Shown: one piece after another, positions 12,074 through 63,257 of the stretch | Layout of the letters: the number at the start of each line of letters is the position of its first letter | Numbering within the stretch: position 1 is the stretch's first letter | NCBI RefSeq assembly: GCF_058153355.1 | Contig: NZ_CM177019.1 | Strand: one strand, 5' to 3' | Length of the DNA stretch: 64,000 bases | The notes under the pieces: model-generated | Told to the model about the DNA's origin: nothing | The model's input: the letters and a program-made list of their open reading frames with translations, nothing else | The model's database searches: none | Position numbers and translations under genes: made by a program

Positions 12074-12238
12074 AAGAAAACTCCTTTCGAATCAGGAGGC
12101 CATTGTAACGGAATACGTGCAGTTGCGACGCTGATATTGCAGAAATGAGTGTGGTATAGTCACCTTGCGAAACAGAGTTTATCTTCGTAGGCTTAGACTT
12201 GCATCCACGGTTAAGTCAGAGTGCTGACAGGAGGGCAT

Positions 12239-12439
12239 GTGGAAAAATATTGTGAGTTAATACGCAAGCGGTACGCGGAAATCGCCAGCGGAGACTTAGG
12301 ATACGTTCCGGACGCGCTGGGCTGCGTTTTGAAAGTGCTGAATGAAATGGCTGCCGACGATGCCCTTTCTGAGGCTGTCAGGGAAAAAGCAGCATACGCT
12401 GCGGCAAACTTACTGGTGAGCGATTATGTCAATGAATGA
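12239..12439 (+). CDS. yaeP: UPF0253 protein YaeP
   Basis: ORF track starts at GTG 12221; recognised YaeP begins (M)[24 protein letters not shown] from the GTG at 12239 (66 aa) with upstream AGGAGGG ribosome-binding site. Confidence 0.85.
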
Positions 12440-12686
12440 TACGTATCAACCAATCAATTGTGATGATTACGATAATCTTGAGCTCGCCTGCCAGCATCAT
12501 TTAATGCTAACACTTGAGCTGAAAGATGGCGAAAAACTGCAGGGGAAGGCCAGCGATTTAGTCTCCCGCAAAAATGTGGAATATCTGGTCGTCGAAGCTG
12601 ATGGCGAAACCCGCGAGCTACGTCTGGATAAAATTACCAGCTTTAGCCACCCGGAAATCGGTACGGTGGTGGTGAGCGAGTCCTGA
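12426..12686 (+). CDS. rof: Rho-binding antiterminator Rof
   Basis: 86-aa ORF (alternative start MNDTYQ at 12432 gives 84 aa) overlapping yaeP end; recognised as Rof (YaeO). Confidence 0.9.
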
Positions 12687-12689
12687 TTG

Positions 12690-12730
12690 ACTTTCGCCGG
12701 ATGCGACGTTTGATGCGTCTTATCCGGCTT
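12690..12730. repeat. REP-like palindromic element
   Basis: GCCGGATGCGACGTTTGATGCGTCTTATCCGGC, imperfect palindrome of REP type between convergent rof and tilS. Confidence 0.7.
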
Positions 12731-12738
12731 TCACTTAA

Positions 12739-14034
12739 CTAAGCGTTTCGCCGCCAGACAAAACTTACGCCATTCTCACCTTCAGCCACACCTTCTTGCG
12801 TCACAAATACCTCTGCCGCAGCAATCAGCGTTTCGCCATAAAACAGCAGTGGCGTGGTGTCACGCAACCACGGCGGTACGCCCAGTTCCTGCCAGATTTT
12901 CTTTAACTTACGCCCACCATTGCGCCCGACAATATGCAGCAATCCTGGCGCTTTGAAACGCACGCTGACCGCTTCGTCTGCACGCGGAGGGCGAATATCG
13001 CCTCCCGCAGTAAGCTGTACACTTCCCAGCGCCGCCGGTAATTCCAGCGGTTGTAACCACGTCTGCCACGGCACAATGGTTTCGCTTTGCCCAGTGACGG
13101 ATTTAATCCACCACAGTTGCGATTGATAGCGGCGGATTTCAACCCCCCCCAAACGTAAACAGGGGGAAGCATCTTCTCGCGCCAGCGCCACTTCCTGCCA
13201 GATCCTCACCAACGCGTCGCGGGAAGGCATCGGTGCATTCTGCCCTGCCAGCCAGCGGCGGATAATCGCCGCGCGACGGGCATCACTCATCGCCAGCATT
13301 GGCGCAATCTGCAACGTCCCCTGCGGCGTTTGACAGTGTGCTAAATCATCTGCCAGCAGTTCATCCAGCAGGCTCTCTTGCTCAGCACAAAGTGCGGCGC
13401 TGCGGGCCGTTGCTTCGGCAAAATGCGGCCAACGCTGCTGCAATAACGGCACAACGCGCAGGCGCAGGAAGTTACGATCGTATGAGTCGTCCTGATTACT
13501 TTCGTCTTCAATCCAACGTAAACCATGCGCCAACGCCCACTGCTCCAGTTCTCCCCGTGTGCGGGCGAGCAACGGGCGGATAAGCCGCGTTCCGGCAAAC
13601 TCCGAGACTTCCGCCATAGCCGAAAGCCCTGCAGGGCCGCTACCACGTTTTAACGCCAGCAGAAACGTTTCACATTGATCGTCGAGATGTTGCGCTGTAA
13701 CCAGCACTTCACCAGGTAACAGGGTACGAGCAAATGCCTGATAACGTGCCTGCCGCGCCTGAGCCTCAATACCTAGCCCCTCTTGCGCAAGTTGCACACG
13801 CTCAACCACCAGCGGCACCTGCCACTGGTGGCAGATGTTCTCGCAATGCATAACCCAGGCATCGGCATTGGCACTTAAACCGTGATGCACATGAATAGCG
13901 CGCAGGGTGACGCCCGGATTTTCCGTCCGCCACTGCACCAACTGATGCAGCAGAACGGTGGAGTCAAGCCCGCCGCTAAAGGCCACCAGAATCTGGCGTG
14001 AGATGAGAAGTTGTCTATTGAGAGTGAGTGTCAT
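12739..14034 (-). CDS. tilS: tRNA(Ile)-lysidine synthetase
   Basis: 431-aa ORF with PP-loop SGGLDS; recognised as TilS (MesJ). Confidence 0.95.
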
Positions 14035-14098
14035 GATGGTGCGATTTTACAGTAGCAATGCCCGGCACGTTACCGGGCAAATATGGCGATGACAAGCC

Positions 14099-14488
14099 TT
14101 ACTGCTCATACAGTTCCAACGGCAGTCCGTCCGGATCGTTAAAGAATGTGAAGCGCTTTTGCGTGTAGGGATCGACACGTATGGCTTCACATTTCACCTT
14201 ATGGCTTTCAAGATGCGCCACTGCCGCATCGATATCATCAACGCTAAAAGCCAGATGACGCAGGCCGCAAGCTTCCGGTCGGCTGGGGCGCTCCGGCGGG
14301 AACGGAAATGAGAAAAGCTCAATCACATATTGCCCATTAAGCGCCAAATCCCCTTTCCACGAATCGCGCGCTTCGCGATAGACTTCGCTTTGCAGCGTGA
14401 AACCGAGAATATCGCAGTAGAAAGCTTTGCTCACCGCATAATCCGTCGCAATAATCGCAATATGGTGAACCTGTTTTAAACCCAGCAT
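14099..14488 (-). CDS. yaeR: VOC/glyoxalase-family protein YaeR
   Basis: ORF track 14099-14515; recognised YaeR starts MLGLKQVHHIAII (129 aa). Confidence 0.85.
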   Translation of the reverse strand: MLGLKQVHHIAIIATDYAVSKAFYCDILGFTLQSEVYREARDSWKGDLALNGQYVIELFSFPFPPERPSRPEACGLRHLAFSVDDIDAAVAHLESHKVKCEAIRVDPYTQKRFTFFNDPDGLPLELYEQ

Positions 14489-14544
14489 AACGTCTCCTTT
14501 ATTTGTTAACAGCACGTTACTCGCCCGGAAGCCGCTCTGGCAAG

Positions 14545-16686
14545 TTATCCCGCCATTTTTAGGACTCGTACGCGGTAAACGCCACCTTCGTCCTGTTTCG
14601 CGCCGTGAATATCCGTTTCAAAGCCGGGGTAGCGCTGGCCCACTGAACAGAGCATCAGCAGAAAATCGAGTACCGTGCGGCTCTCCTCGGTCAGCATTTC
14701 TCCTGGCATCAGTAGCGGTACGCCAGGCGGATAAGGCAGGATCATATTTGCCGATACTCTACCGACCAGTTGTTCCAGCGCAATGGTTTCTACTTCGCCT
14801 TTAATCTGCCGTTGCCAGGCCTGATGTGGCGTCATGATCATCTCCGGCAAAGTATCAAATGCCCGCAACATCAAACCGGGAAGATCGTGTTTACGAATCA
14901 GCTTATGGATGCCTTGCGCCAGATCCTGAATACGCATATTGCGATAAAAATCGGGATCTTCTGCATAGAGATCGGGCAGCATATTTTTGATCCGCAGGTT
15001 GAGATCGTAAGAGCGCTTAAATTCCGTCAACCCACGCAATAATCCCATTGCTTTGGTTTTATCGATGCCAATACTAAAGAGAAACAGCAGGTTATAAGGG
15101 CCGGTTTTCTCTACTACGATCCCACGTTCGTCGAGGAATTTTGCCACCAGCGCCGCCGGGATCCCCTCATCGCTCATATTGCCCTGCTCGTCCATCCCCG
15201 GTGTCAAAATAGTGACTTTAACCGGATCGAGAAACATATGATCGGCATCCGCATCGTTAAAGCCGTGCCACTGTTCGCCAGGCGCAACGGGCCAGCATTC
15301 GGCTTCATCCACCTGCGGCGGTTGCCAGATATCGAAAAACCAGCCGTCAGACTCTTCCCGCAGCCGCTGGACCTCTTTGCGAAAATGCAGCGCTCGTTCT
15401 ACTGAACGGTTAATCAGCCGTTTGCCCGGATTACCACGCAGCATCGCCGCCGCTGTCTCAACCGAAGCAACAATGGGATAACTGGGCGAAGTGGTGGTAT
15501 GCATCATAAAGGCTTCATTAAACGCCTCTTCGTCGTACTCACCTTTAATGTGGATCAGTGATGCCTGCGACAACGCCGCCAGCATTTTGTGGGTCGATTG
15601 CGTTTCGAAGAAAACTTTTCCTGCCACCCGATCGCCACTCATACCACTTTTGCCCTGATAGATCGGATGAAAATGAGTATACGGGACCCAGGCGGAATCG
15701 AAGTGGATCGAGGGGACATCCAGCGTCTGTTTGATCCAGTCGGTGTTGTAGAGCAAGCCATCATAGGTTGAGTTGGTGATCACCGCATGAACCGGCCATT
15801 GTGCCTGCGTGGTAGCAGCGACTTTCTCTTCGATACTGTCGCGGGTAAATTCTCGTCGCGGGATCCCGCCCAAAATACCCAACGCATTACGTGTTGGTTT
15901 TAGCCAGACCGGCACTACATCGTTCATCATCAACAGATGCGCCAGCGATTTATGACAATTGCGGTCAATTAACAGCGTACTGCCGGATGGCGCGGCGTAC
16001 ATACCCACAATTTTGTTCGACGTCGATGTTCCGTTGGTGACAATATAACTCTGTTCCGCGCCGAAAGTCCGTGCGATGTACTCTTCCGCTTCCAGATGTG
16101 GCCCGGTGTGGTCGAGCAACGAACCTAGCTCGGTTACCGAAATAGAGACGTCCGCCTTGAGGGTATTCCCGCCGAAAAAATCATAAAACAGACAGCCTAC
16201 CGGGCTTTTCTGATACGCGGTGCCGCCCATATGCCCCGGCGTACAAAAGGTGTACTTCCGCTCTTTGACATAAGTAAACAAGGCTTTAGTGAATGGCGGG
16301 GTAATGTTATCGAGATATTCGTTGGTGTACTGACGCATACGAATGGCGATATCTTCTGCCTGCCCCAGCGCATATTCAAAGAACCAGAGCGCCATCCGCA
16401 TATCCTGCACGCTGACATCCATCGTCGAGTGAGTATTGATGAAGGCATAAAGCGGGAGATATTCATTAAGTTGATTGATATCGCTACATAAATCGAGACT
16501 GTATTCATCCCAGTCAAAAATCACGCCGCATATTCGTGGGTTGTGTTCGATAAATTTCAGCAAATCAACGCTGTTTTGTGGCCAGATAATCTGAAAACCT
16601 TGCGCCACCAGCGCCGACTCCAGTTCTTTGATGGGCTCATCTTTATAAAAGACGCCATGCGGTCCCATAATGGCAATGATATTCAT
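14545..16686 (-). CDS. ldcC: lysine decarboxylase, constitutive
   Basis: 713-aa ORF, PLP-dependent Orn/Lys/Arg decarboxylase family; recognised as LdcC. Confidence 0.95.
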   Translation of the reverse strand: MNIIAIMGPHGVFYKDEPIKELESALVAQGFQIIWPQNSVDLLKFIEHNPRICGVIFDWDEYSLDLCSDINQLNEYLPLYAFINTHSTMDVSVQDMRMALWFFEYALGQAEDIAIRMRQYTNEYLDNITPPFTKALFTYVKERKYTFCTPGHMGGTAYQKSPVGCLFYDFFGGNTLKADVSISVTELGSLLDHTGPHLEAEEYIARTFGAEQSYIVTNGTSTSNKIVGMYAAPSGSTLLIDRNCHKSLAHLLMMNDVVPVWLKPTRNALGILGGIPRREFTRDSIEEKVAATTQAQWPVHAVITNSTYDGLLYNTDWIKQTLDVPSIHFDSAWVPYTHFHPIYQGKSGMSGDRVAGKVFFETQSTHKMLAALSQASLIHIKGEYDEEAFNEAFMMHTTTSPSYPIVASVETAAAMLRGNPGKRLINRSVERALHFRKEVQRLREESDGWFFDIWQPPQVDEAECWPVAPGEQWHGFNDADADHMFLDPVKVTILTPGMDEQGNMSDEGIPAALVAKFLDERGIVVEKTGPYNLLFLFSIGIDKTKAMGLLRGLTEFKRSYDLNLRIKNMLPDLYAEDPDFYRNMRIQDLAQGIHKLIRKHDLPGLMLRAFDTLPEMIMTPHQAWQRQIKGEVETIALEQLVGRVSANMILPYPPGVPLLMPGEMLTEESRTVLDFLLMLCSVGQRYPGFETDIHGAKQDEGGVYRVRVLKMAG

Positions 16687-16740
16687 GTGTTCCTCCTGGA
16701 AAATCCTTCCTTAATCATAGCCCGCTCAAACCATGGCGAT

Positions 16741-16770
16741 AAAAAAGGGCCACCGAAGTGACCCTTTTCA
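16741..16770 (-). terminator. Rho-independent terminator after accA
   Basis: Minus strand reads GGGTCACttcgGTGGCCC followed by TTTTTT; plus strand has A-run then T-run, so possibly bidirectional. Confidence 0.75.
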
Positions 16771-16783
16771 GAACATTTGCTGA

Positions 16784-17743
16784 TTACGCGTAGCCGTAGC
16801 TCATCAGGCGCTGATAACGACGATTTTTTAAATCTTCAGTACTTAACACGTCGAGATCGGCCAGATCCGCCAGCAGTTGCGCTTTCAGAGACGCCGCCAT
16901 CGCTTCCGGGTTACGGTGAGCGCCGCCCAGCGGTTCCGGGATGATGGAGTCAATCAGTTTCAGTTCTTTCAAACGCGGAGCGATGATCCCCATCGCTTCA
17001 GCCGCCAGCGGTGCTTTGTCGGCGCTCTTCCACAGAATGGACGCGCAACCTTCCGGCGAAATAACGGAATAGGTGCTGTATTGCAGCATATTCACTTTAT
17101 CGCCCACGCCAATCGCCAGTGCGCCGCCAGAACCACCTTCACCGATAACGGTGCAAATAGTCGGTACGCTAAGGCGAGACATTTCACGCAGGTTGCGTGC
17201 AATGGCTTCAGACTGACCGCGTTCTTCTGCGCCCACGCCCGGATAAGCCCCCGGGGTGTCGATAAAGGTGATGATTGGCATCTTAAAGCGTTCAGCCATT
17301 TGCATCAGACGCAGTGCTTTGCGGTAACCTTCTGGCGCTGGCATACCAAAGTTACGGCGAATTTTTTCTTTGGTTTCACGACCTTTTTGATGACCAATGA
17401 TCATCACCGGACGACCATCGAGACGGGCGATACCCCCGACGATAGCTTTATCGTCTGCATACGCGCGGTCGCCAGCCAGTTCGTCAAATTCATCAAAGGC
17501 CAGGCGAACGTAATCCAGGGTATAAGGACGCTGTGGATGGCGTGCCAGTTGCGCAATCTGCCATGCACCGAGATCGGCGAAGATTTTACGCGTCAGTTCT
17601 ACGCTTTTTTCACGCAGACGATGCACTTCTTCATCGATATTAATATCCAGTTTCTCATCCTGGCGGCTAACCGCAGTCAGAGAATCGATTTTCGCTTCCA
17701 GCTCTGCAATCGGCTGTTCAAAATCAAGGAAATTCAGACTCAT
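16784..17743 (-). CDS. accA: acetyl-CoA carboxylase carboxyltransferase alpha subunit
   Basis: 319-aa ORF; recognised as AccA. Confidence 0.96.
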
Positions 17744-17755
17744 AGTATTCCTGTA

Positions 17756-20700
17756 TTAGTCAAACTCCAGTTCCACCTGCTCCGAACCAATGAGGCCACG
17801 GAGATCGTTTAATAAACGATCGCTCGGAGAGACACGCCAAGTCGCGCCAAAACGCAACCGCGCGCGTGCATCCGCCCTCTGATAGTAGAGATGTACTGGA
17901 ATTGTCCCAGAGCGGTGGGGTTCCAGAGACTGACGGAGTCGGTTTAAAAGCTGGTCATCAATTTGCCTGTCCGTCAGCGAGATAGCAAGCCCGCGAGCAT
18001 ATTTTTCCCGGGCTTCGTCAATATCCATCACTTCGCGAGCGGTCATTTTAAGCCCACCGCTGAAGTCATCAAAGCTGACCTGTCCGCTGACGATAAGTAT
18101 GCGGTCTTTTTCCAGCAATTGCTGGTATTTATCCAGGGCGTCAGTAAACAACATCACTTCCAGCCGCCCGGAACGGTCATCCAGCGTGCAGATACCGATA
18201 CGATTGCCGCGCTTGGTGACCATAACCCGCGCAGCAACAACGAGCCCCGCAGCCGTGGTGACTTTACCACGTTCTGTCGGGTGCATGTCTTTCAGCCTTA
18301 CGCCTCCGACATAACGCTCAATCTCTTTTAAATACTGGTTGATAGGGTGTCCCGTCAGGTACAGACCTAACGTTTCACGTTCCCCATCTAACACCACCTG
18401 CTCCGGCCACGGTTGGCAACTGGCGTAGGATTGTTCAATTTGTTCCGGCTCTTCTGCCAGCACGCCGAACATATCAGCCTGACCGATGGCTTCTGCTTTC
18501 GCGTGTTGATCAGCCGCCTTTAACGCATCGCCCAGCGAGTTCATCAGCGCCGCACGGTGTGGCCCAAGACGGTCAAACGCCCCGGACATGATCAGTTTTT
18601 CCAGCACTCGCCGGTTTAACTTTTTGGTGTCTGTACGGGCGCAGAGATCAAACAGTTCACGGAAATAGCCGCCTTTATTACGGGCTTCGATGATCGCCTC
18701 AATCGGACCTTCACCTACCCCTTTGATCGCGCCAATACCATACACGATTTCGCCGTCGTCGTTGACGTGGAAATGGTAAAGACCGGAGTTTATATCTGGT
18801 GGCAGGATTTTCAGCCCCATCCGCCAGCACTCATCCACCAGGCCCACCACCTTCTCGGTGTTGTCCATATCGGCGGTCATTACTGCCGCCATAAACTCCG
18901 CTGGATAGTGCGCTTTCAGCCATAACGTTTGATATGAAACCAAAGCATAGGCCGCAGAGTGCGATTTGTTAAATCCGTAACCAGCGAATTTCTCCACCAG
19001 GTCGAAGATTTTCATCGCCAGTTCGGCGTTGATCCCGTTCTTTTCTGCGCCTTCAGCAAATACAGAACGCTGCTTGGCCATCTCTTCCGGCTTTTTCTTA
19101 CCCATCGCACGACGCAGCATATCCGCGCCACCGAGGGTATAACCAGAAAGCACCTGGGCAATCTGCATGACCTGTTCCTGATACAGGATAATGCCGTAGG
19201 TTGGCTCCAGTACCGGTTTCAGGCTTTCATGCTGCCACTGCACATCCGGATAGGAGATCTCTTCGCGACCATGTTTACGGTCGATAAAGTTATCCACCAT
19301 CCCTGATTGCAACGGACCGGGACGGAATAGCGCCACCAGTGCGATCATATCTTCGAAGCAGTCAGGTTGCAGACGTTTGATCAGGTCCTTCATGCCGCGC
19401 GATTCAAGCTGGAACACCGCCGTGGTTTCCGAGCGTTGCAGCATATCGAAACTTTTCTTGTCATCCAGCGGGATAGCGGCGATATCCAGCGGCGGCTCAC
19501 CATTCTTCGCCCGCCGTTTGTTAATCATCTCCAGCGCCCAGTTGATGATGGTGAGCGTACGCAGGCCGAGGAAGTCGAACTTCACCAGCCCGGCGTATTC
19601 AACGTCGCTTTTATCAAACTGGGTGACCGGATGTTTGCCCTCTTCATCGCAATAAAGCGGCGCAAAATCGGTAATTTTGGTCGGCGCGATAACCACCCCA
19701 CCGGCGTGCTTACCAGCGTTACGGGTGACCCCTTCCAGTTTGCGCGCCATGTCGATCAGCGCCTTAACTTCTTCGTCCGCTTCGTAGATTTCCGGCAGTT
19801 GCGGCTCGGCTTCAAACGCTTTCGCCAGCGTCATCCCCGGATCGGGCGGGATCAGTTTCGAGATACGATCGACAAAGCCGTACGGATGCCCCAGCACGCG
19901 GCCTACGTCGCGGATCACCGCTTTTGCCGCCATTGTACCGAAGGTGATGATCTGCGATACCGCATCACGGCCGTACATATCTGCCACGTGTTCGATAACC
20001 TGGTCGCGTTTTTCCATACAGAAGTCAACGTCGAAGTCAGGCATGGAGACACGTTCCGGGTTAAGGAAACGTTCGAACAGCAGGTCAAATTCCAACGGAT
20101 CGAGGTCGGTGATTTTTAACGCGTAAGCCACCAGTGACCCTGCACCAGAACCACGGCCTGGCCCTACCGGTACGCCGTTATCTTTCGACCACTGGATAAA
20201 TTCCATAACGATGAGGAAGTAACCCGGGAAGCCCATCTGGTTGATAACCTGAAGTTCAGTATCCAGACGCTCGTCATACTCCGGGCGACGCTTAAGACGT
20301 TCTTCCTCGTCAGGGAATAAAAATGCCAGACGCTCTTCCAGGCCTTCTTTTGCACGCTTGACCAGATAATCTTCGGTGCTCATGTCCCCGGTCGGGAACT
20401 GCGGCAGGAAGTATTCACCCAGACGCACAGTCACGTTACAGCGTTTGGCGATCTCAACAGTGTTGGCAAGGGCTTCGGGGATGTCGGCAAACAGCTCGCA
20501 CATCTCCTCTTCGCTGCGCATATATTGCTGCGGCGAATAATTACGCGGGCGTTTGGGATCGTCGAGAGTAAAGCCGTCATGGATCGCGACGCGGATTTCG
20601 TGCGCGTCAAAGTCACTGCTGTCGATAAAGCGCACGTCATTGGTCGCCACGACGGGCAAACCGCGCGCTTCCGCCAGTTCCACTGCCGCGTGCAGATAAC

Positions 20701-21238
20701 TTTCTTCGTCCGGCCTGCCGGTTCGGATCAGCTCGAGAAAATAGCGATCCGGGAAGTGCTCTTCATAAAACGCAACGCACTCATCTACCAGCGCGCTGTT
20801 ACCACGCAAAAGACTGCGCCCGACGTCGCCCATGCGCCCGCCGGAAAGGAGGATCAGCCCTTCGTTTAATTCGATAAGCCAGTCGCGATCGATGATCGGC
20901 CCGGCGGCACCGTACCCGCGCTGATACGCTTTTGAGATCAGCAACGTCAGATTCTGATAGCCGATATTGTTCGCCGCCAGCACCGTCAGGTGGGTTAACT
21001 CATCACCCAGCAGGTCGCACTGGACATTAAAATCTGCCCCGACGATGGGCTTAATCCCTGCGCCATGTCCCGCTCCGTAGAACTTCACCAGACCGCAAAG
21101 GTTGGTGAAATCGGTGATCGCCAGTGCTGGCATACCCAACGCCGCCGCCTTTTTTACCAGCGGCGCGGTTTTGGCCAGGCCATCGATCATCGAGTAGTCG
21201 CTGTGCACCCGCAGGTGTACGAAACGTGGTTCAGACAT
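17756..21238 (-). CDS. dnaE: DNA polymerase III alpha subunit
   Basis: 1160-aa ORF with PHP domain and polymerase core; recognised as DnaE. Confidence 0.97.
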
Positions 21239-21274
21239 CTTCAGATTCCGGTTTACTTAATCTCGACACAAGAA

Positions 21275-21871
21275 TCAGGACGCAAGTCCCAGTGCGCGTT
21301 TGACAGGCCCAAAGCTGCGACGATGATGTTCAGTCGCGCCATATTCAGCCAGTTTTTCCAGATGAAAAGCGGTTGGATACCCTTTGTGCTGGGCAAAACC
21401 ATATTGCGGGAAAACAATATCCAGCGCCGCCATTTCAGCGTCGCGCGTCACTTTCGCCAAGATAGACGCAGCACTGATTTCCGGCACACGACTGTCGCCT
21501 TTCACCACTGCCATCGAAGGCATCGGTAATTTTGGGCAGCGGTTACCATCAATCAACACATATTCTGGCGCAATATGCAGCCCCGCGACGGCGCGCTGCA
21601 TCGCCAGCATGGTCGCATGAAGAATGTTCAGTTCGTCGATTTCGTGGGGTTCCGCGCGGCCCAGACTCCAGCTTAACGCTTTCTCTTTGATCTCTTCACA
21701 GAGCGCCAGACGGCGTTTTTCGCTCAGCTTTTTGGAATCATTCAGCCCGGCAATCGGGCGCGCCGGGTCAAGGATTACAGCAGCGGTAACCACCGCGCCA
21801 ACCAACGGCCCGCGTCCGACTTCATCCACACCCGCAACCAGCTGCGTGTGTGGATAAACAAATTCGATCAT
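21275..21871 (-). CDS. rnhB: ribonuclease HII
   Basis: 198-aa ORF with DEVGRGPL motif; recognised as RnhB. Confidence 0.96.
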
Positions 21872-23016
21872 TGTGCTAACTCCAGAACGGCTTGTGCCGC
21901 CTGCTCATCGGCATTGCAGCGGATCTGCTGATGCAGTTCACGGAAGGTATCGTGCATCGCGTGACTGGTTTTCCCATTCGCCAACAGCGGTAACAGCGCC
22001 GCAGCCAGTTTTTGCGGCTCACACTCTTCCTGCAATAACTCTTTGACTAACTCTCTGCCCGCCAGCAAATTTGGCAGCGAGACATACTCGGTTTTCACCA
22101 GCCGCTTCGCCAGCCAGAAGGTAAAAGGCTTCATGCGATATCCCACCACCATCGGGCATTTCGCCAGCATGCACTCCAGGGCTGCCGTACCCGACGCCAG
22201 TAGCGCCGCATCACTGGCGACCATCGCCTCACGGCCCATTCCATCCAGCAGATGAACAGCAAGGTCCGGTGCGACTTCAGCTTTGATACGCTCAAACTGC
22301 TCGCGGCGTTTGGCATTCACCAGCGGCACCACGATCTCGAGATCGGGATATGTCTGACGCAAAAGCTGGGCCGTTTTCAGGAAATCGGCACTCAGCATCT
22401 CCACTTCCGCACCACGGCTTCCCGGCAGCAACGCAAGACAGTGAGCATCGTGAGGGATCCCCAGCACATCACGCGCGGCGTTTTTATCTGGATCTAACGG
22501 CATGGCATCAGCCATGGTGTGACCGATAAAACGGCACGGCACGTTGTATTTGTCATAAAACGCTTTTTCGAAAGGCAGAAATGCGAGCACCAGATCAGTG
22601 GCTCTGCCTATTTTGAAAACGCGTTTCTGTCGCCACGCCCAGACGGACGGACTGACGTAATGAATGGTTTTGATACCCTGCTTTTTAAGATTACCTTCGA
22701 GGGTAATATTGAAGTCAGGTGCATCAATGCCGACAAAAACATCTGGCTTCAGTTCGCCAAAACGCTTTGTCAGATCGGCACGAATATGCAGTAAGCGACG
22801 CAGACGACCGAGCACTTCAACAATGCCCATCACCGCCAACTCTTCCATTTCGTACCAGGCTTCGCAGCCTTCGGCCTGCATTCGTGGCCCGGCAACGCCA
22901 ACAAAGCGGGCGTTGGGCACTCGTTCTTTCAGAGCACGGATTAAACCGGCCCCCAGGATATCGCCGGAGGTTTCTCCGGCGACCAGGGCAATCGTTAATG
23001 GACGCTGTTCAGTCAT
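21868..23016 (-). CDS. lpxB: lipid-A-disaccharide synthase
   Basis: 382-aa ORF; recognised as LpxB; overlaps rnhB start by 4 bp. Confidence 0.96.
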
Positions 23017-23804
23017 TAACGAATCAGACCGCGCGTTGAGCGTGCAAAGAAATCGGTAAAGGCTTTTACTTCCGGATATGTTTCCGCCAGTTCGGCAATT
23101 TCCGGTTTCACTTCATCGAGCGTTTTACCGCTGCGATAAATCAGCTTATACGCATTGCGGATAGCGGTAATCGCCTCACGGCTGAATCCGCGGCGCTTCA
23201 GCCCTTCGATGTTGACACCGAACGGCGTTGCGTGGTTACCCTGCGCAATGACATAAGGAGGGACGTCCTGCGCCACACCGGAACAACCGCCAACCATCAC
23301 GTGTGCACCAATGATGCAGAACTGATGGACTGCGGTCATGCCGCCGATGATCGCGAAGTCGTCTACCGATACATGACCCGCCAGCGTTGCGTTGTTGGCG
23401 AGGATGCAGCGGTTACCTACCGTACAATCGTGCGCAATGTGCGCGTTGATCATCAGTAAGTTGTCGCTGCCCACCTTCGTCAATCCACCGCCCTGGACTG
23501 TGCCACGATGAATGGTGACGCTTTCGCGAATGCGGTTACGATCGCCGATTTCCACACGGGTCGGTTCGCCAGCATATTTAAGATCCTGGTTGACTTCGCC
23601 GATGGAGGCGAACTGATAAATCTCATTGTCACGGCCAATTTTAGTATGACCATTCACGACAACGTGAGATTTCAGTACGGTACCCTCACCAATTTCGACA
23701 TGGGGTCCAACGATACAAAAAGGACCAATGTGAGCATTGGCGGCAATCGATGCGCCCTCTTCCACAATGGCGGTTGGATGCACAAAGGCGGATTTATCAA
23801 TCAC
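23016..23804 (-). CDS. lpxA: UDP-N-acetylglucosamine acyltransferase
   Basis: 262-aa ORF with hexapeptide repeats; recognised as LpxA; 1-bp overlap with lpxB. Confidence 0.96.
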
Positions 23805-23807
23805 GTA

Positions 23808-24263
23808 TCAGGCCTCCCGGCTACGAGCACACATCATCGTTGCTTCGCAAACTACTTTACCGTCGACCAGAGCAACCCCTTTAAAACGGGTCAGGCCGCG
23901 GCGCGTTTTTTCGAAAGTGACTTCCATGATCATTTGATCGCCTGGCACGACCGGGCGCTTGAAGCGCGCTTCGTCAATACCGGCGAAGTAGTACAGCTCG
24001 CCCGGTTCCAGTTTTCCTACGCTCTTAAACGCCAGAATACCTGTTGCCTGTGCCATTGCTTCCAGAATAAGCACACCCGGGAAAATCGGTTTTCCAGGAA
24101 AATGGCCCTGGAAGAATGGCTCATTGACAGAGACATTTTTTACTGCGCGCAGAAAACGACCTTCTTCAAAATCCAGCACGCGATCCACCAGTAAGAACGG
24201 GAAACGGTGCGGCAGAAGTTCTAAAATCTCTTCAATCTGCAGAGTATGAGTGTTAGTAGTCAA
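23808..24263 (-). CDS. fabZ: 3-hydroxyacyl-ACP dehydratase FabZ
   Basis: ORF track extends to 24356; recognised FabZ starts (M)[22 protein letters not shown] from a TTG codon at 24261-24263 (151 aa). Confidence 0.9.
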
Positions 24264-24367
24264 GATACTCTTCCTGTCAAAATATAAGAAACGACAATAA
24301 TAACACGGCCTGCCGCAATCGTAAGAATGAGACAGGCCGTAAAGTTTGGCGAACAAAAGATGGAACG

Positions 24368-41253: not shown

Positions 41254-41285
41254 GGGCAGCACGACGCTGCCCGATTGCTTTCTGG
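41254..41285 (+). terminator. putative terminator after dapD
   Basis: GGGCAGCacgacGCTGCCC followed by GATTGCTTTCTGGTT (moderately T-rich). Confidence 0.55.
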
Positions 41286-41553
41286 TTCAGAATAATTCGT
41301 CCTACTCATTCTTCTTCCCCTTTTTTAAATACTTTTTCATCTTGTTTCGGACTGTCATGTAATTCGCAAAACAAAGATAAATGTGCTAATCCATCCCATG
41401 GAATATCGCCACAATAAAGCAGGTAATTTTTTGATTTTTACGCCATGATAGAAGTCTGGAAGAAAAAGGCTTTCTGCGATCACAGTCGAGCCGGGCGGGC
41501 CAGGCCAAATGCTAAAATAAGCACAATTTACTGACTCATTTTGAGGTAACGCT

Positions 41554-41940: not shown

Positions 41941-41967
41941 TCCCTGACTGACGGTTAGCTCGGGTAG

Positions 41968-41994
41968 TCTCCTCTCCCCTTCGGGGTGAGGAGA
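41968..41994. other. stable stem-loop with UUCG-type tetraloop between convergent yaeH and cdaR (possible bidirectional terminator)
   Basis: TCTCCTCTCCCC-ttcg-GGGTGAGGAGA, imperfect 11-12 bp stem; no strong T-run. Confidence 0.5.
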
Positions 41995-42028
41995 ACAAGC
42001 CTGCCCCGCCTCGACCTTAACGCATAAC

Positions 42029-50766: not shown

Positions 50767-52047
50767 ATGAGTAAGTCTGAAAATCTATACAGCGCAGCGC
50801 GCGAGCTGATCCCTGGCGGTGTGAACTCCCCTGTTCGCGCCTTTACTGGCGTGGGCGGCACTCCACTGTTTATCGAAAAAGCGGACGGTGCTTATCTGTA
50901 CGATGTTGATGGCAAAGCCTATATCGATTATGTCGGTTCCTGGGGGCCGATGGTGCTGGGCCATAACCATCCGGCGATCCGCAATGCCGTGATTGAAGCC
51001 GCCGAGCGTGGTTTAAGCTTTGGGGCACCGACCGAAATGGAAGTGAAAATGGCGCAACTGGTGACCGAACTGGTCCCGACCATGGATATGGTGCGCATGG
51101 TGAACTCCGGCACTGAAGCGACAATGAGTGCCATCCGCCTGGCCCGCGGTTTTACCGGTCGCGACAAAATCATTAAATTTGAAGGTTGTTACCACGGTCA
51201 CGCTGACTGCCTGCTGGTAAAAGCCGGTTCTGGCGCACTCACGTTAGGCCAGCCAAACTCGCCGGGCGTTCCGGCAGATTTTGCCAAACATACCTTAACC
51301 TGTACTTATAACGATCTGGCTTCTGTACGCGCCGCGTTTGAGCAATACCCGCAAGAGATTGCCTGTATTATCGTCGAGCCGGTGGCAGGCAATATGAACT
51401 GTGTTCCGCCGCTGCCAGAGTTCCTGCCGGGTCTGCGTGCGCTGTGTGACGAATTTGGCGCGTTGCTGATCATCGATGAAGTGATGACCGGTTTCCGCGT
51501 GGCGCTGGCTGGCGCGCAGGATTATTACGACGTGGTGCCAGACCTCACCTGCCTGGGCAAAATCATCGGCGGTGGAATGCCGGTAGGCGCATTCGGTGGT
51601 CGTCGTGATGTGATGGATGCGCTGGCCCCAACCGGTCCGGTCTACCAGGCGGGTACGCTTTCCGGTAACCCGATTGCGATGGCAGCCGGTTTCGCCTGTC
51701 TGAATGAAGTCGCGCAGCCGGGCGTTCACGAGACGCTGGATGAGCTGACAACACGTCTGGCAGAAGGTCTGCTGGAAGCGGCAGAAGAAGCGGGAATTCC
51801 ATTGGTCGTTAACCACGTTGGCGGCATGTTCGGTATTTTCTTTACCGACGCCGAGTCCGTGACGTGCTATCAGGATGTGATGGCCTGCGACGTCGAGCGC
51901 TTTAAGCGTTTCTTCCATATGATGCTGGACGAAGGTGTTTACCTGGCACCGTCAGCGTTTGAAGCGGGCTTTATGTCTGTGGCGCACAGCATGGAAGATA
52001 TCAATAACACCATCGATGCTGCACGTCGGGTGTTTGCGAAGTTGTAA
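50767..52047 (+). CDS. hemL: glutamate-1-semialdehyde 2,1-aminomutase
   Basis: 426-aa ORF; recognised as HemL. Confidence 0.96.
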
Positions 52048-52053
52048 TGATTT

Positions 52054-52082
52054 TGCCTCGCCCACCGGGCGAGGCATTTTAT
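52054..52082. terminator. bidirectional terminator between convergent hemL and fhuB
   Basis: TGCCTCGCCC-acc-GGGCGAGGCA (10-bp stem) followed by TTTT; the whole intergenic region is only 34 bp. Confidence 0.8.
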
Positions 52083-60889: not shown

Positions 60890-63184
60890 TCATGAATACT
60901 TTTTCGTCCGTCGCGTCGGTGCGGTATTTGCCGGATCATCCGGCCAGACGTGTTTGGGATAACGCCCTTTCATTTCTTTTTGCACCTCGCGATACGCTCC
61001 TTTCCAGAAGGCACTCAAATCTCGTGTGATTTGCAGCGGCCTTTGGGCAGGAGAAAGCAACTCCAGCACCAGCGGCACACGCCCCTGGGCGATCGTCGGA
61101 TTGGTGGCCTCGCCAAACATCTCCTGCATTCTCACCGCCAGCGCGGGCGGGTTATCTTCATGGTAACGAATGGCGATCCGGCTTCCCGTCGGCACAGTGT
61201 AATGCGCAGGCAATTCACTATCCAGACGTTGCTGCATCCCCCAATCAAGTAATCCGCGTAGCGCCTGATAAATATCGAGTGATTTCAGGCCGCGTAGCGA
61301 ATGTACGCCTGCCATATGCGGCAGTAGCCACGTTTCCAGCGTCGCCAACAAACTTTCATCATCAACCGCTGGCCAGTCATATTCTGGCAACCACCTGGCG
61401 GCGCATAACAAACGCAAGCGTAGCTGTTCCGCTTCCGGCGTCCAGTTAAGCACGCTTAAGCCTTTATCACGAACGCCGTTAAGCATCGCCTGATGCAGCT
61501 CGTCTTCTGAAGGCTTCGCCAGCGGCTGCACTTTTACCGTCAGTTGACCAATTTGCAACCGACGCCAGGCTTTCAGCGTACCTTGCGCATCATCCCACTC
61601 CACGGTGTCCGATTGCTGCACCAGCTGCGGACAGCGTTGCACTAATTCATCGATATCGACCGGTAGCGCCAGTAAAATCCGCGCATCCGGCGAGGCGCTA
61701 CCCTGCAATAATAACGGTGCGATAAGCGAACTGTCTGCCTCACCGCCGCGTACGTTTAAGCGCTTTAACAGTTGCTGGCTACGTTGCTGCCAGGCAGGTT
61801 GATTGCGCGAAAACGCCACGCCCAGATCGATATTGCCCATCCGTGGTGGCTCTTCGAGAATAGCGGCAATTTTTGCAGCGGTAGCAGCTTCGTCGTCGCT
61901 CTTTACGCTCACCAGCATTGCCGCTAAACGCGGATCGTTACCCAGCGTCGCCATTTTCTGCCCTTTCGTGCTTAGCCGTTCACCGTCCATCGCCCCCAGC
62001 ATCCGCAACAGGCGTTTCGCGGCCTGTAAATTCACGGCTGGCGGTTGATCCAGCCAGCTCATCTGCGCCGGATCGCTGCATCCCCATTGCAGTAATTCCA
62101 TCAGCAAACCGGAAAGATCGCTTTGTAAGATCTCCGGTTCACTTTGTGCGGCAGCGCGTTCTGCTTGTTCTTTGGCGATTAAATGCAGGCAGATACCCGG
62201 CTCCAGACGCCCGGCACGCCCGGCACGCTGCGTCATCGACGCCTGACTGATTCGCTGAGTAATCAACCGCGTAAGTCCTGTACGCGGATCAAAACGCGCC
62301 ACCCTTTCCTGGGCGCAATCCACCACCAGACGAATACCTTCGATGGTTAAACTGGTTTCAGCAATATTGGTTGCCAGCACCACTTTGCGCATCCCTTCTG
62401 GTGCCGGAAGGATCGCTTTTCGCTGATCGTTCAGCGACAACGCGCCATACAGCGGGCAGAGCAACACATCACTACCGATGCGCGAAGCCAGTTGTTCCTG
62501 AACGCGCTGAATTTCTCCGACACCAGGTAAAAATAACAGTAATGAGCCGCTTTCCTGATGCAGCAATTCGGCGGTGGCAACCGCCACGGCTTCATCAAAA
62601 CGCTGATGAGCGAGCAGCGGTAAATATCGGCGTTCAACCGGAAATGAGCGCCCTTCTGAGATGACGACGGGCGCTTCTGGCAGCATCTGCTGCAAGCGGT
62701 CATTGTCCAGCGTAGCCGACATAATCAGTAGTTTAAGGTCATCACGCAGACCTTGTTGCACATCGAGTAACAGCGCCAACGCCAGATCCGCCTGCAAGCT
62801 GCGCTCATGAAACTCATCGAGGATCACCAATCCAACGCCGCTCAGTTCAGGGTCACGCTGGATCATGCGCGTCAACACGCCTTCGGTAACTACTTCCAGG
62901 CGAGTATTTGGCCCGACACAGTTTTGCGCGCGCATCCGGTAGCCTACCGTATCACCTGTTTTTTCGTTAAGCAGTTCCGCCAGTCGTTGCGCAACGTTAC
63001 GCGCCGCCAGGCGACGCGGCTCCAGCAGGATAATTTTTCCGTTAATGCCGGGATGCGCCAGCAGTTGCAGCGGCAGCCAGGTTGATTTCCCGGCCCCGGT
63101 CGGCGCACTTAATAACACCTGCGGTGCACCATCGAGGGCAGCAAGTAACTCAGGTAAGACGACGGCAACGGGCAACGACGACAC
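60890..63184 (-). CDS. hrpB: ATP-dependent RNA helicase HrpB (DEAH-box); appears about 45 codons shorter than the K-12 reference I recall
   Basis: ORF track 60890-63229 (779 aa from ATG); recalled HrpB start (M)SSLPVAVVLPELLAAL corresponds to the GTG at 63182-63184, giving 764 aa; motifs GAGKST, DEFH, SAT present. Confidence 0.85.
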   Translation of the reverse strand: MSSLPVAVVLPELLAALDGAPQVLLSAPTGAGKSTWLPLQLLAHPGINGKIILLEPRRLAARNVAQRLAELLNEKTGDTVGYRMRAQNCVGPNTRLEVVTEGVLTRMIQRDPELSGVGLVILDEFHERSLQADLALALLLDVQQGLRDDLKLLIMSATLDNDRLQQMLPEAPVVISEGRSFPVERRYLPLLAHQRFDEAVAVATAELLHQESGSLLLFLPGVGEIQRVQEQLASRIGSDVLLCPLYGALSLNDQRKAILPAPEGMRKVVLATNIAETSLTIEGIRLVVDCAQERVARFDPRTGLTRLITQRISQASMTQRAGRAGRLEPGICLHLIAKEQAERAAAQSEPEILQSDLSGLLMELLQWGCSDPAQMSWLDQPPAVNLQAAKRLLRMLGAMDGERLSTKGQKMATLGNDPRLAAMLVSVKSDDEAATAAKIAAILEEPPRMGNIDLGVAFSRNQPAWQQRSQQLLKRLNVRGGEADSSLIAPLLLQGSASPDARILLALPVDIDELVQRCPQLVQQSDTVEWDDAQGTLKAWRRLQIGQLTVKVQPLAKPSEDELHQAMLNGVRDKGLSVLNWTPEAEQLRLRLLCAARWLPEYDWPAVDDESLLATLETWLLPHMAGVHSLRGLKSLDIYQALRGLLDWGMQQRLDSELPAHYTVPTGSRIAIRYHEDNPPALAVRMQEMFGEATNPTIAQGRVPLVLELLSPAQRPLQITRDLSAFWKGAYREVQKEMKGRYPKHVWPDDPANTAPTRRTKKYS

Positions 63185-63257
63185 AAAACGCTCCAGAGGG
63201 TTAACATTCTTCGCGCCACATTGTAGCATCGCGGTAATGCATAACCGAGTACCTCAC

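Follow-up and report, generated by a model that had tools for sequence, protein, structure and literature searches.

Three genes in the window, a 64,000-nucleotide stretch of E. coli chromosome that corresponds to the 161-226 kb region of K-12 in reversed orientation, almost certainly begin at ordinary, already annotated near-cognate start codons. These are yaeP and hrpB, which start at GTG, and fabZ, which starts at TTG. The first-pass annotation had inferred these starts from protein recognition, placing the GTG of yaeP at 12239-12241 (+) behind an AGGAGGG motif, the TTG of fabZ at 24263-24261 (-) and the GTG of hrpB at 63184-63182 (-). All three codons and the yaeP motif (12229-12235) are present, and each codon opens the frame of its recognised protein, YaeP, FabZ or HrpB. 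Comparison with curated reference annotations, one of the checks named beforehand, returned the same codons in K-12 MG1655 (NC_000913.3; yaeP b4406, fabZ b0180, hrpB b0148), and two close E. coli genomes annotated by PGAP have them as well. The finding is correct and was already known.

Agreement of starts across sequence, structure and energetics

The start codons and protein N-termini of yaeP, fabZ and hrpB in K-12 MG1655 (coordinates 214125, 202101 and 162105, respectively) are the same as those in the window. Over the 40 nt before the yaeP and fabZ starts the two sequences are identical, and two differences fall within the 70 nt preceding hrpB. The N-termini of the solved structures of HrpB (PDB: 6HEG), FabZ (PDB: 6N3P) and YaeP (PDB: 5H1N) likewise coincide with the annotated starts. 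Cross-species DNA comparison and Shine-Dalgarno energetics agree with this assignment. Orthologues of all three genes, in Enterobacterales and more widely, align at the same start codon, and the region upstream is non-coding, as indicated by stops and non-triplet indels in many relatives. The Shine-Dalgarno:anti-Shine-Dalgarno energies of the annotated starts are all better than those of upstream in-frame candidates, the fabZ motif being weak. An upstream in-frame ATG had been named as the competitor for each gene, and such a codon exists for hrpB (63229) but not for yaeP or fabZ.

The combination of a near-cognate codon and a Shine-Dalgarno motif is shared by these three genes and bacterial GUG/UUG starts generally. 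Initiator fMet-tRNA would initiate at GUG in yaeP and hrpB and at UUG in fabZ, placed by a Shine-Dalgarno sequence 3-8 nt upstream, and the weak start codons may hold initiation rates modest. In the case of FabZ, whose dosage relative to LpxC is important, modest initiation would be plausible.

The gene starts of the window agree with the reference annotation, and the finding itself carries little weight. It does illustrate how gene calling can fail: naive longest-ORF or ATG-first calling would misplace starts, adding 15 false residues to HrpB, and a gene caller that accepts only ATG would shorten YaeP and FabZ.

The hrpB start and its upstream ATG

The hrpB coding sequence (60890-63184, -) encodes a 764 aa protein, compared with 809 aa in K-12. 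The difference is due to a 135-bp in-frame deletion downstream of the start, which is accompanied by several substitutions, and the exact 764 aa protein is present in NCBI as E. coli HrpB. From the GTG (63182-63184, -) the N-terminus is expected to read (M)SSLPVAAVLPELLTALD... A GGAG Shine-Dalgarno sequence (63191-63194, -) forms a duplex of -6.2 kcal/mol. Among 91 distinct 5' regions of hrpB, the aligned start codon is GTG in 83, TTG in seven and ATG in one, and a Shine-Dalgarno-like motif precedes it in 87 of the 91 relatives.

The upstream in-frame ATG (63229-63227, -) lies 15 codons before the GTG. Translation of hrpB wholly or partly from this codon would add 15 residues, as in older and some current annotations. 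Nine of the 120 closest HrpB entries in the databases are annotated in this way, with a MLQCGA or MLQCSA start and a length of 824 aa, and the ATG is kept at -15 codons in many loci. Furthermore, the interval between ATG and GTG contains no stop in Escherichia and Citrobacter, so that the open frame would permit a minor long isoform. We nevertheless consider such translation very unlikely. The ATG is without a usable Shine-Dalgarno sequence (-2.4 kcal/mol, 13 nt away), compared with -6.2 kcal/mol for the GTG. In 39 of the 91 relatives, a stop codon or an indel of non-triplet length comes between the ATG and the conserved VSSLPV N-terminus of HrpB, leaving these 5' regions with no reachable upstream in-frame ATG. 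The few differences in the ATG-GTG interval are not confined to third codon positions but also affect first and second ones, and both the curated K-12 record and PGAP place the start at the GTG.

The conservation of the upstream ATG has another explanation. Its bases are the A plus the TG of a conserved element, TGCTACAAT, which is located at 63228-63220 (-), 35 nt upstream of the GTG; together with the preceding A it spans 63220-63229 (-) and resembles an extended -10 motif. The position of the ATG within this element accounts for its conservation without any coding role. The TGnTAnAnT pattern is present in 89 of the 91 relatives at a spacing of 30 to 71 nt from the hrpB start, in all three phases, and conservation of the intergenic region exceeds that of the wobble positions of the coding sequence. 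The motif and its conservation suggest that TGCTACAAT is promoter-like, a putative extended -10 element of the sigma-70 type. A scan for consensus promoters called no promoter in the hrpB direction, where the -35 is weak, and called a site in the thpR direction over the same bases. The TAGCAT hexamer of that promoter-like site overlaps the upstream ATG. Most likely, the upstream ATG is either not transcribed or not used.

As the true hrpB start, the upstream ATG is rejected on the basis of its Shine-Dalgarno energy, its TGCTACAAT context, the stops and indels in relatives, and the annotations. The comparative data argue, independently of annotation, for the 809-aa-type HrpB over the 824 aa form that is still found in databases.

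The yaeP start within an AUGUG site

The yaeP coding sequence (12239-12439, +) encodes 66 aa and overlaps the start of rof. The protein matches K-12 YaeP and residues 1-66 of PDB 5H1N with 100% identity. Its AGGAGGG Shine-Dalgarno sequence (12229-12235, +) forms a strong duplex with the 3' end of 16S rRNA (-10.8 kcal/mol) that ends 3 nt before the GTG (12239-12241, +). Upstream, the frame is closed by a stop at 12212-12214, and the sole in-frame candidate within this interval is a GTG at 12221 with a Shine-Dalgarno energy of -2.4 kcal/mol. Of 21 loci compared across species at the DNA level, 15 have GTG and four have ATG at the aligned start, and the GGAGG core of the Shine-Dalgarno sequence is kept in relatives. 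Several of these loci carry in-frame stops 1-10 codons upstream, including stops at -1, -4, -5 and -6 codons in Budvicia, Rahnella, Serratia and a MAG.

The GTG shares bases with an out-of-frame ATG at 12237-12239, giving an AUGUG site (cATGTGg, ATGTG at 12237-12241). Overlapping AUGUG and GUGUG sites have been surveyed (PMC9841429, Nucleic Acids Res 2022), and the yaeP sequence of the window is identical to the entry in Table 2 of that study. There yaeP appears among the atGTG-start genes, with the Shine-Dalgarno sequence AGGAGG, a DtoStart of 12, a protein abundance of 94.5 ppm and predicted exclusive use of GUG. It therefore belongs to the AUGUG sequence class but not to the dual-frame subset, as no ambiguity is predicted for it in that study.

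Since AUGUG sites may initiate in both frames given suitable spacing (PMC9841429), the AUG at 12237 could in principle also initiate. The product would be a peptide of seven codons (atg tgg aaa aat att gtg agt taa), which would modulate the expression of yaeP-rof, and the strong yaeP Shine-Dalgarno sequence stands upstream of this AUG as well. We regard this as highly improbable. The Shine-Dalgarno duplex ends just 1 nt from the AUG, and reporters with short spacing initiated only at GUG in the same study, whose table scores yaeP, at its DtoStart of 12, as "no" for predicted ambiguity. Furthermore, the AUG is not kept in relatives of yaeP, in which the GTG is preceded by other bases (tatGTG, cccGTG, tctGTG and attGTG).

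The weak fabZ start and its invariant leader

The fabZ coding sequence (23808-24263, -) encodes 151 aa that are 100% identical to K-12 FabZ and agree with PDB 6N3P from Met onward. Mohan et al. (J Biol Chem 1994) reportedly determined the N-terminal sequence of FabZ. No relevant paper that spells out a TTG start for fabZ came up in a literature search.

The TTG (24261-24263, -) is preceded by a Shine-Dalgarno-like AGGAAGAG (24268-24275, -) that is invariant in 24 Enterobacterales sequences. Its duplex is weak (-4.3 kcal/mol) and ends 7 nt before the TTG. The only in-frame candidate upstream is another TTG at 24356 (-0.7 kcal/mol). We compared 66 gammaproteobacterial fabZ loci from Enterobacterales, Vibrionales, Aeromonadales and Alteromonadales, and found TTG at the aligned start in 52, GTG in eight and ATG in two. 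Many loci, for example those of Pantoea, Aeromonas, Lacimicrobium and Alteromonas, have an in-frame stop 1-10 codons upstream and no other start candidate. Seven Vibrio loci carry an ATG two codons upstream of the TTG, which in these loci could be an internal Leu codon.

The deep conservation of this weak TTG, together with its invariant surroundings, is a mildly interesting by-product of the analysis. The initiation region of fabZ is invariant from -14 to +24 in Enterobacterales and could fold into a 7-bp hairpin (AGAGUAU/AUACUCU) whose loop contains the UUG. A conserved GC-rich hairpin is located upstream of it in the lpxD-fabZ spacer (24304-24341). RNAalifold detected no compensatory changes in these two hairpins, whose pairs are invariant or show one-sided changes to G-U, and the hairpins are thus unproven. 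It is conceivable, albeit doubtful, that the weak UUG is a selected feature that, together with the leader hairpins, sets or regulates the level of FabZ against those of LpxD, LpxA and LpxC within one operon, and hence how phospholipid and lipid A are balanced. Should the UUG and the invariant leader prove functional, they would add modestly to the understanding of how lipid A synthesis is kept in proportion to phospholipid synthesis.

Independence from annotation and start-codon usage in the window

Annotations spread by homology, and for the neighboring gene rof K-12 and PGAP disagree (84 versus 86 aa), the comparative data favoring the 86 aa form. That the three starts are likewise a habit inherited from K-12, with the true starts a few codons up- or downstream, is scarcely credible: the raw-DNA comparison is independent of annotation and finds a start codon at the aligned position in nearly all orthologues, upstream stops tightly bracket the annotated starts, and protein conservation begins at the same codon. 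yaeP, fabZ and hrpB are not mentioned in the text or supplements of a tetracycline-profiling study (TetRP, PMC4909307) or in the TRAINSPOTTER supplements (PMC13245402).

Near-cognate starts are not confined to these three genes. When the genes annotated by PGAP in the closest complete genome are mapped onto the window, they number 55, of which 46 start with ATG, seven with GTG (gmhB, yaeP, lpxA, skp, frr, fhuB and hrpB) and two with TTG (fabZ and cdsA). Six further non-ATG starts in the window had thus been missed by the first-pass annotation. Well-annotated bacterial genomes use ATG in 81.8%, GTG in 13.8% and TTG in 4.35% of genes (bioRxiv 10.1101/063800). The proportion of non-ATG starts in the window (9/55, 16%) agrees with this general use of GUG and UUG (about 14% and 4% of genes), and a local excess is ruled out. 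Selection towards AUG has been described as a general trend (PMC5622118); in contrast, the non-AUG codons of fabZ, skp and hrpB persist across very long evolutionary distances.

Start codons of yaeP, fabZ and hrpB

The yaeP GTG (12239-12241, + strand), the fabZ TTG (24263-24261, - strand) and the hrpB GTG (63184-63182, - strand, followed by SSLPVAVVLPELL...), proposed as initiation codons in the first-pass annotation, were all found on direct reading, as was the proposed AGGAGGG Shine-Dalgarno (SD) site upstream of the yaeP GTG (12229-12235). The accompanying remark that each displaces an upstream in-frame ATG holds for hrpB only (ATG 63229, 15 codons upstream). In yaeP, there is an in-frame stop at 12212-12214 and the sole upstream in-frame candidate is GTG 12221; ATG 12237 is out of frame and overlaps the yaeP GTG. 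The sole upstream candidate for fabZ is TTG 24356, directly past the lpxD stop. Apart from the upstream-ATG remark, the observation is real and the start assignments are right, and they are already settled by reference annotations and, for yaeP, also by the literature.

The curated E. coli K-12 MG1655 record places GTG, TTG and GTG at the homologous codons of yaeP (b4406), fabZ (b0180) and hrpB (b0148), and the sequence upstream of all three is identical or near-identical between K-12 and the window. In NCBI (PGAP) annotation, the closest complete genomes have the three starts on the same window coordinates. The N-termini in crystal structures of HrpB (6HEG), FabZ (6N3P) and YaeP (5H1N) are those of the annotated starts. 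A 13.5-kb stretch around the first-pass finding matches 5,424 of the 5,426 complete genomes of E. coli, with identities of 95-99% (top 99.2%); the gene order is that of K-12 MG1655 at ~161-226 kb in reverse complement, and NCBI already lists the window's exact HrpB among E. coli proteins.

SD strength was expressed as duplex energy with the 16S 3' end. The annotated start is ahead of its upstream in-frame rival in all three genes: -10.8 against -2.4 kcal/mol for yaeP, -4.3 against -0.7 for fabZ and -6.2 against -2.4 for hrpB. Standard initiation would apply, with the SD positioning the 30S subunit and initiator tRNA pairing with GUG or UUG. Initiation at GUG and UUG is weaker than at AUG. The combination of a weak codon and a weak SD may keep fabZ initiation deliberately modest; it is known that FabZ dosage in relation to LpxC is critical (PMC4651636).

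Frequency of non-ATG starts

From the closest genome, all 56 PGAP genes were placed on the window, and 55 mapped (46 ATG, 7 GTG and 2 TTG). GTG starts occur in gmhB, yaeP, lpxA, skp, frr, fhuB and hrpB, and TTG starts in fabZ and cdsA. Well-annotated bacterial genomes use ATG, GTG and TTG at 81.8%, 13.8% and 4.35% (bioRxiv 10.1101/063800); against these rates, 9 of 55 means that the three codons are neither exceptional nor the full list. Six further annotated non-ATG starts were absent from the first-pass annotation: gmhB GTG (3577), lpxA GTG (23804), skp GTG (25882), cdsA TTG (30687), frr GTG (33492) and fhuB GTG (54064). The gene that did not map, yaeI (813 nt, between dapD and yaeH in the closest complete genome), is missing from the window, where 127 nt (41276-41404) stand in for 842 nt of reference. 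Smaller length differences occur in the yaeH-cdaR (41941-42027) and hemL-fhuB (52045-52081) spacers.

yaeP and fabZ starts across relatives

A single scan of species-representative genomes, anchored on DnaE, yielded 80 loci from Enterobacterales, Vibrionales, Aeromonadales, Pasteurellales and Alteromonadales. Of 21 yaeP loci, 15 (including one pseudogene) have GTG at the aligned codon and four have ATG; in two Photobacterium loci, the start is an ATG located two codons upstream. GTG/ATG interchange at one aligned position is a classic start-codon signature, which the aligned yaeP codons display. The GGAGG motif is conserved, and several genera have stops at codon positions -1 to -6. A published list of E. 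coli atGTG-start genes includes yaeP, giving it SD AGGAGG, a DtoStart of 12, no predicted ambiguity and an abundance of 94.5 ppm; by the reporter logic of that paper, the short SD spacing would exclude the overlapping AUG (PMC9841429).

The yaeP-rof operon, whose genes overlap, has been described (PMC9765468; bioRxiv 10.1101/2023.08.30.555460). Annotations differ on the rof start (12426-12434): the K-12 start is the second ATG (12432, 84 aa), the PGAP start the first (12426, 86 aa). All 19 Enterobacterales loci retain the first ATG, including those in which the overlapping YaeP residues vary, and several loci have ACG or TTG in place of the second, which favours the 86-aa form.

At the position of the E. 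coli fabZ TTG, the 66 aligned loci have TTG in 52 cases, GTG in eight (mostly Shewanella and close relatives), ATG in two and, by extrapolated alignment, CTG in one. Many loci have a stop 1-10 codons upstream of this position and no other start candidate, so that TTG is the sole possible initiator there; a caveat is that seven Vibrio loci carry an ATG two codons upstream of the TTG, though too near the AGGA motif. In three Photorhabdus and Xenorhabdus loci (L019, L023, L024), TAG replaces the TTG and ATG replaces the following codon, ACT; the start has thus shifted one codon downstream and is now ATG, with an identical upstream leader.

Across 24 Enterobacterales, the fabZ leader shows essentially no variation between -14 and +24. 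The stretch from the SD-like AGGAAGAG through codon 8 (24241-24275, - strand) is near-invariant in this set, synonymous positions included. RNAalifold predicts two hairpins here, one GC-rich in the lpxD-fabZ spacer and one of 7 bp, AGAGUAU (24271-24265) with AUACUCU (24247-24241), that holds the TTG in a 17-nt loop. The spacer hairpin (24304-24341, - strand; CGGCCUG...CAGGCCG) has invariant arms, a variable loop and a U-rich tract after it, and might act as a partial terminator or else serve to stabilise or process the mRNA. Compensatory changes were sought in both hairpins across the 24 Enterobacterales and none were seen. The conserved leader with its predicted hairpins would be the only mildly novel angle of this analysis, and an unproven one.

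Non-ATG starts are kept over long distances in the skp/fabZ/lpxA operon. Aligned skp starts are GTG in 20 loci, TTG in 11 and ATG, almost never used, in one; aligned lpxA starts are GTG in 36 and ATG in 17, and in this comparison the fabZ starts are TTG in 51, GTG in eight and ATG in two. This retention runs opposite to the general trend of start codons toward AUG (PMC5622118).

The hrpB start and the thpR-hrpB spacer

A DNA pattern for the HrpB Walker-A region, with one wobble position picked to exclude Escherichia, was used to scan metagenome contigs. Together with fetched E. albertii and Citrobacter loci, this gave 91 distinct 5' regions (identity at least 70%), in which the start is GTG in 83, TTG in seven and ATG in one; 87 have an SD-like motif. 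The upstream ATG of E. coli hrpB forms the initial three bases of a near-universal element, A-TGCTACAAT. On the hrpB strand, this element can be read as an extended -10 promoter motif. Its distance to the start ranges from 30 to 71 nt in all three phases, and 39 of the 91 regions have no in-frame ATG reachable short of a stop. Variable distance, three phases and intervening stops are non-coding signatures, and the promoter-like motif suggests that this ATG most likely lies outside the mRNA.

The element's bases also belong to a promoter-like site directed to thpR, as its TAGCAT hexamer. In the 73-bp divergent spacer (63185-63257), promoter-like elements overlap face-to-face, TTAACA-17-TAGCAT toward thpR and TGCTACAAT toward hrpB. 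Between Escherichia and Citrobacter the spacer is more conserved than flanking coding wobble positions, including those of hrpB, as would be expected of the compact divergent promoter region that these motifs suggest.

The window hrpB lacks 135 bp in frame (45 codons, K-12 codons 488-532), giving 764 rather than 809 aa. The junction (61712-61723, - strand) lies inside the 12-nt direct repeat ATCGCACCGTTA, suggesting a repeat-mediated deletion. Three distinct E. coli HrpB variants among the database entries, one of them O157, have this same junction, and hrpB is full-length in 20/20 complete E. coli genomes among the matches listed.
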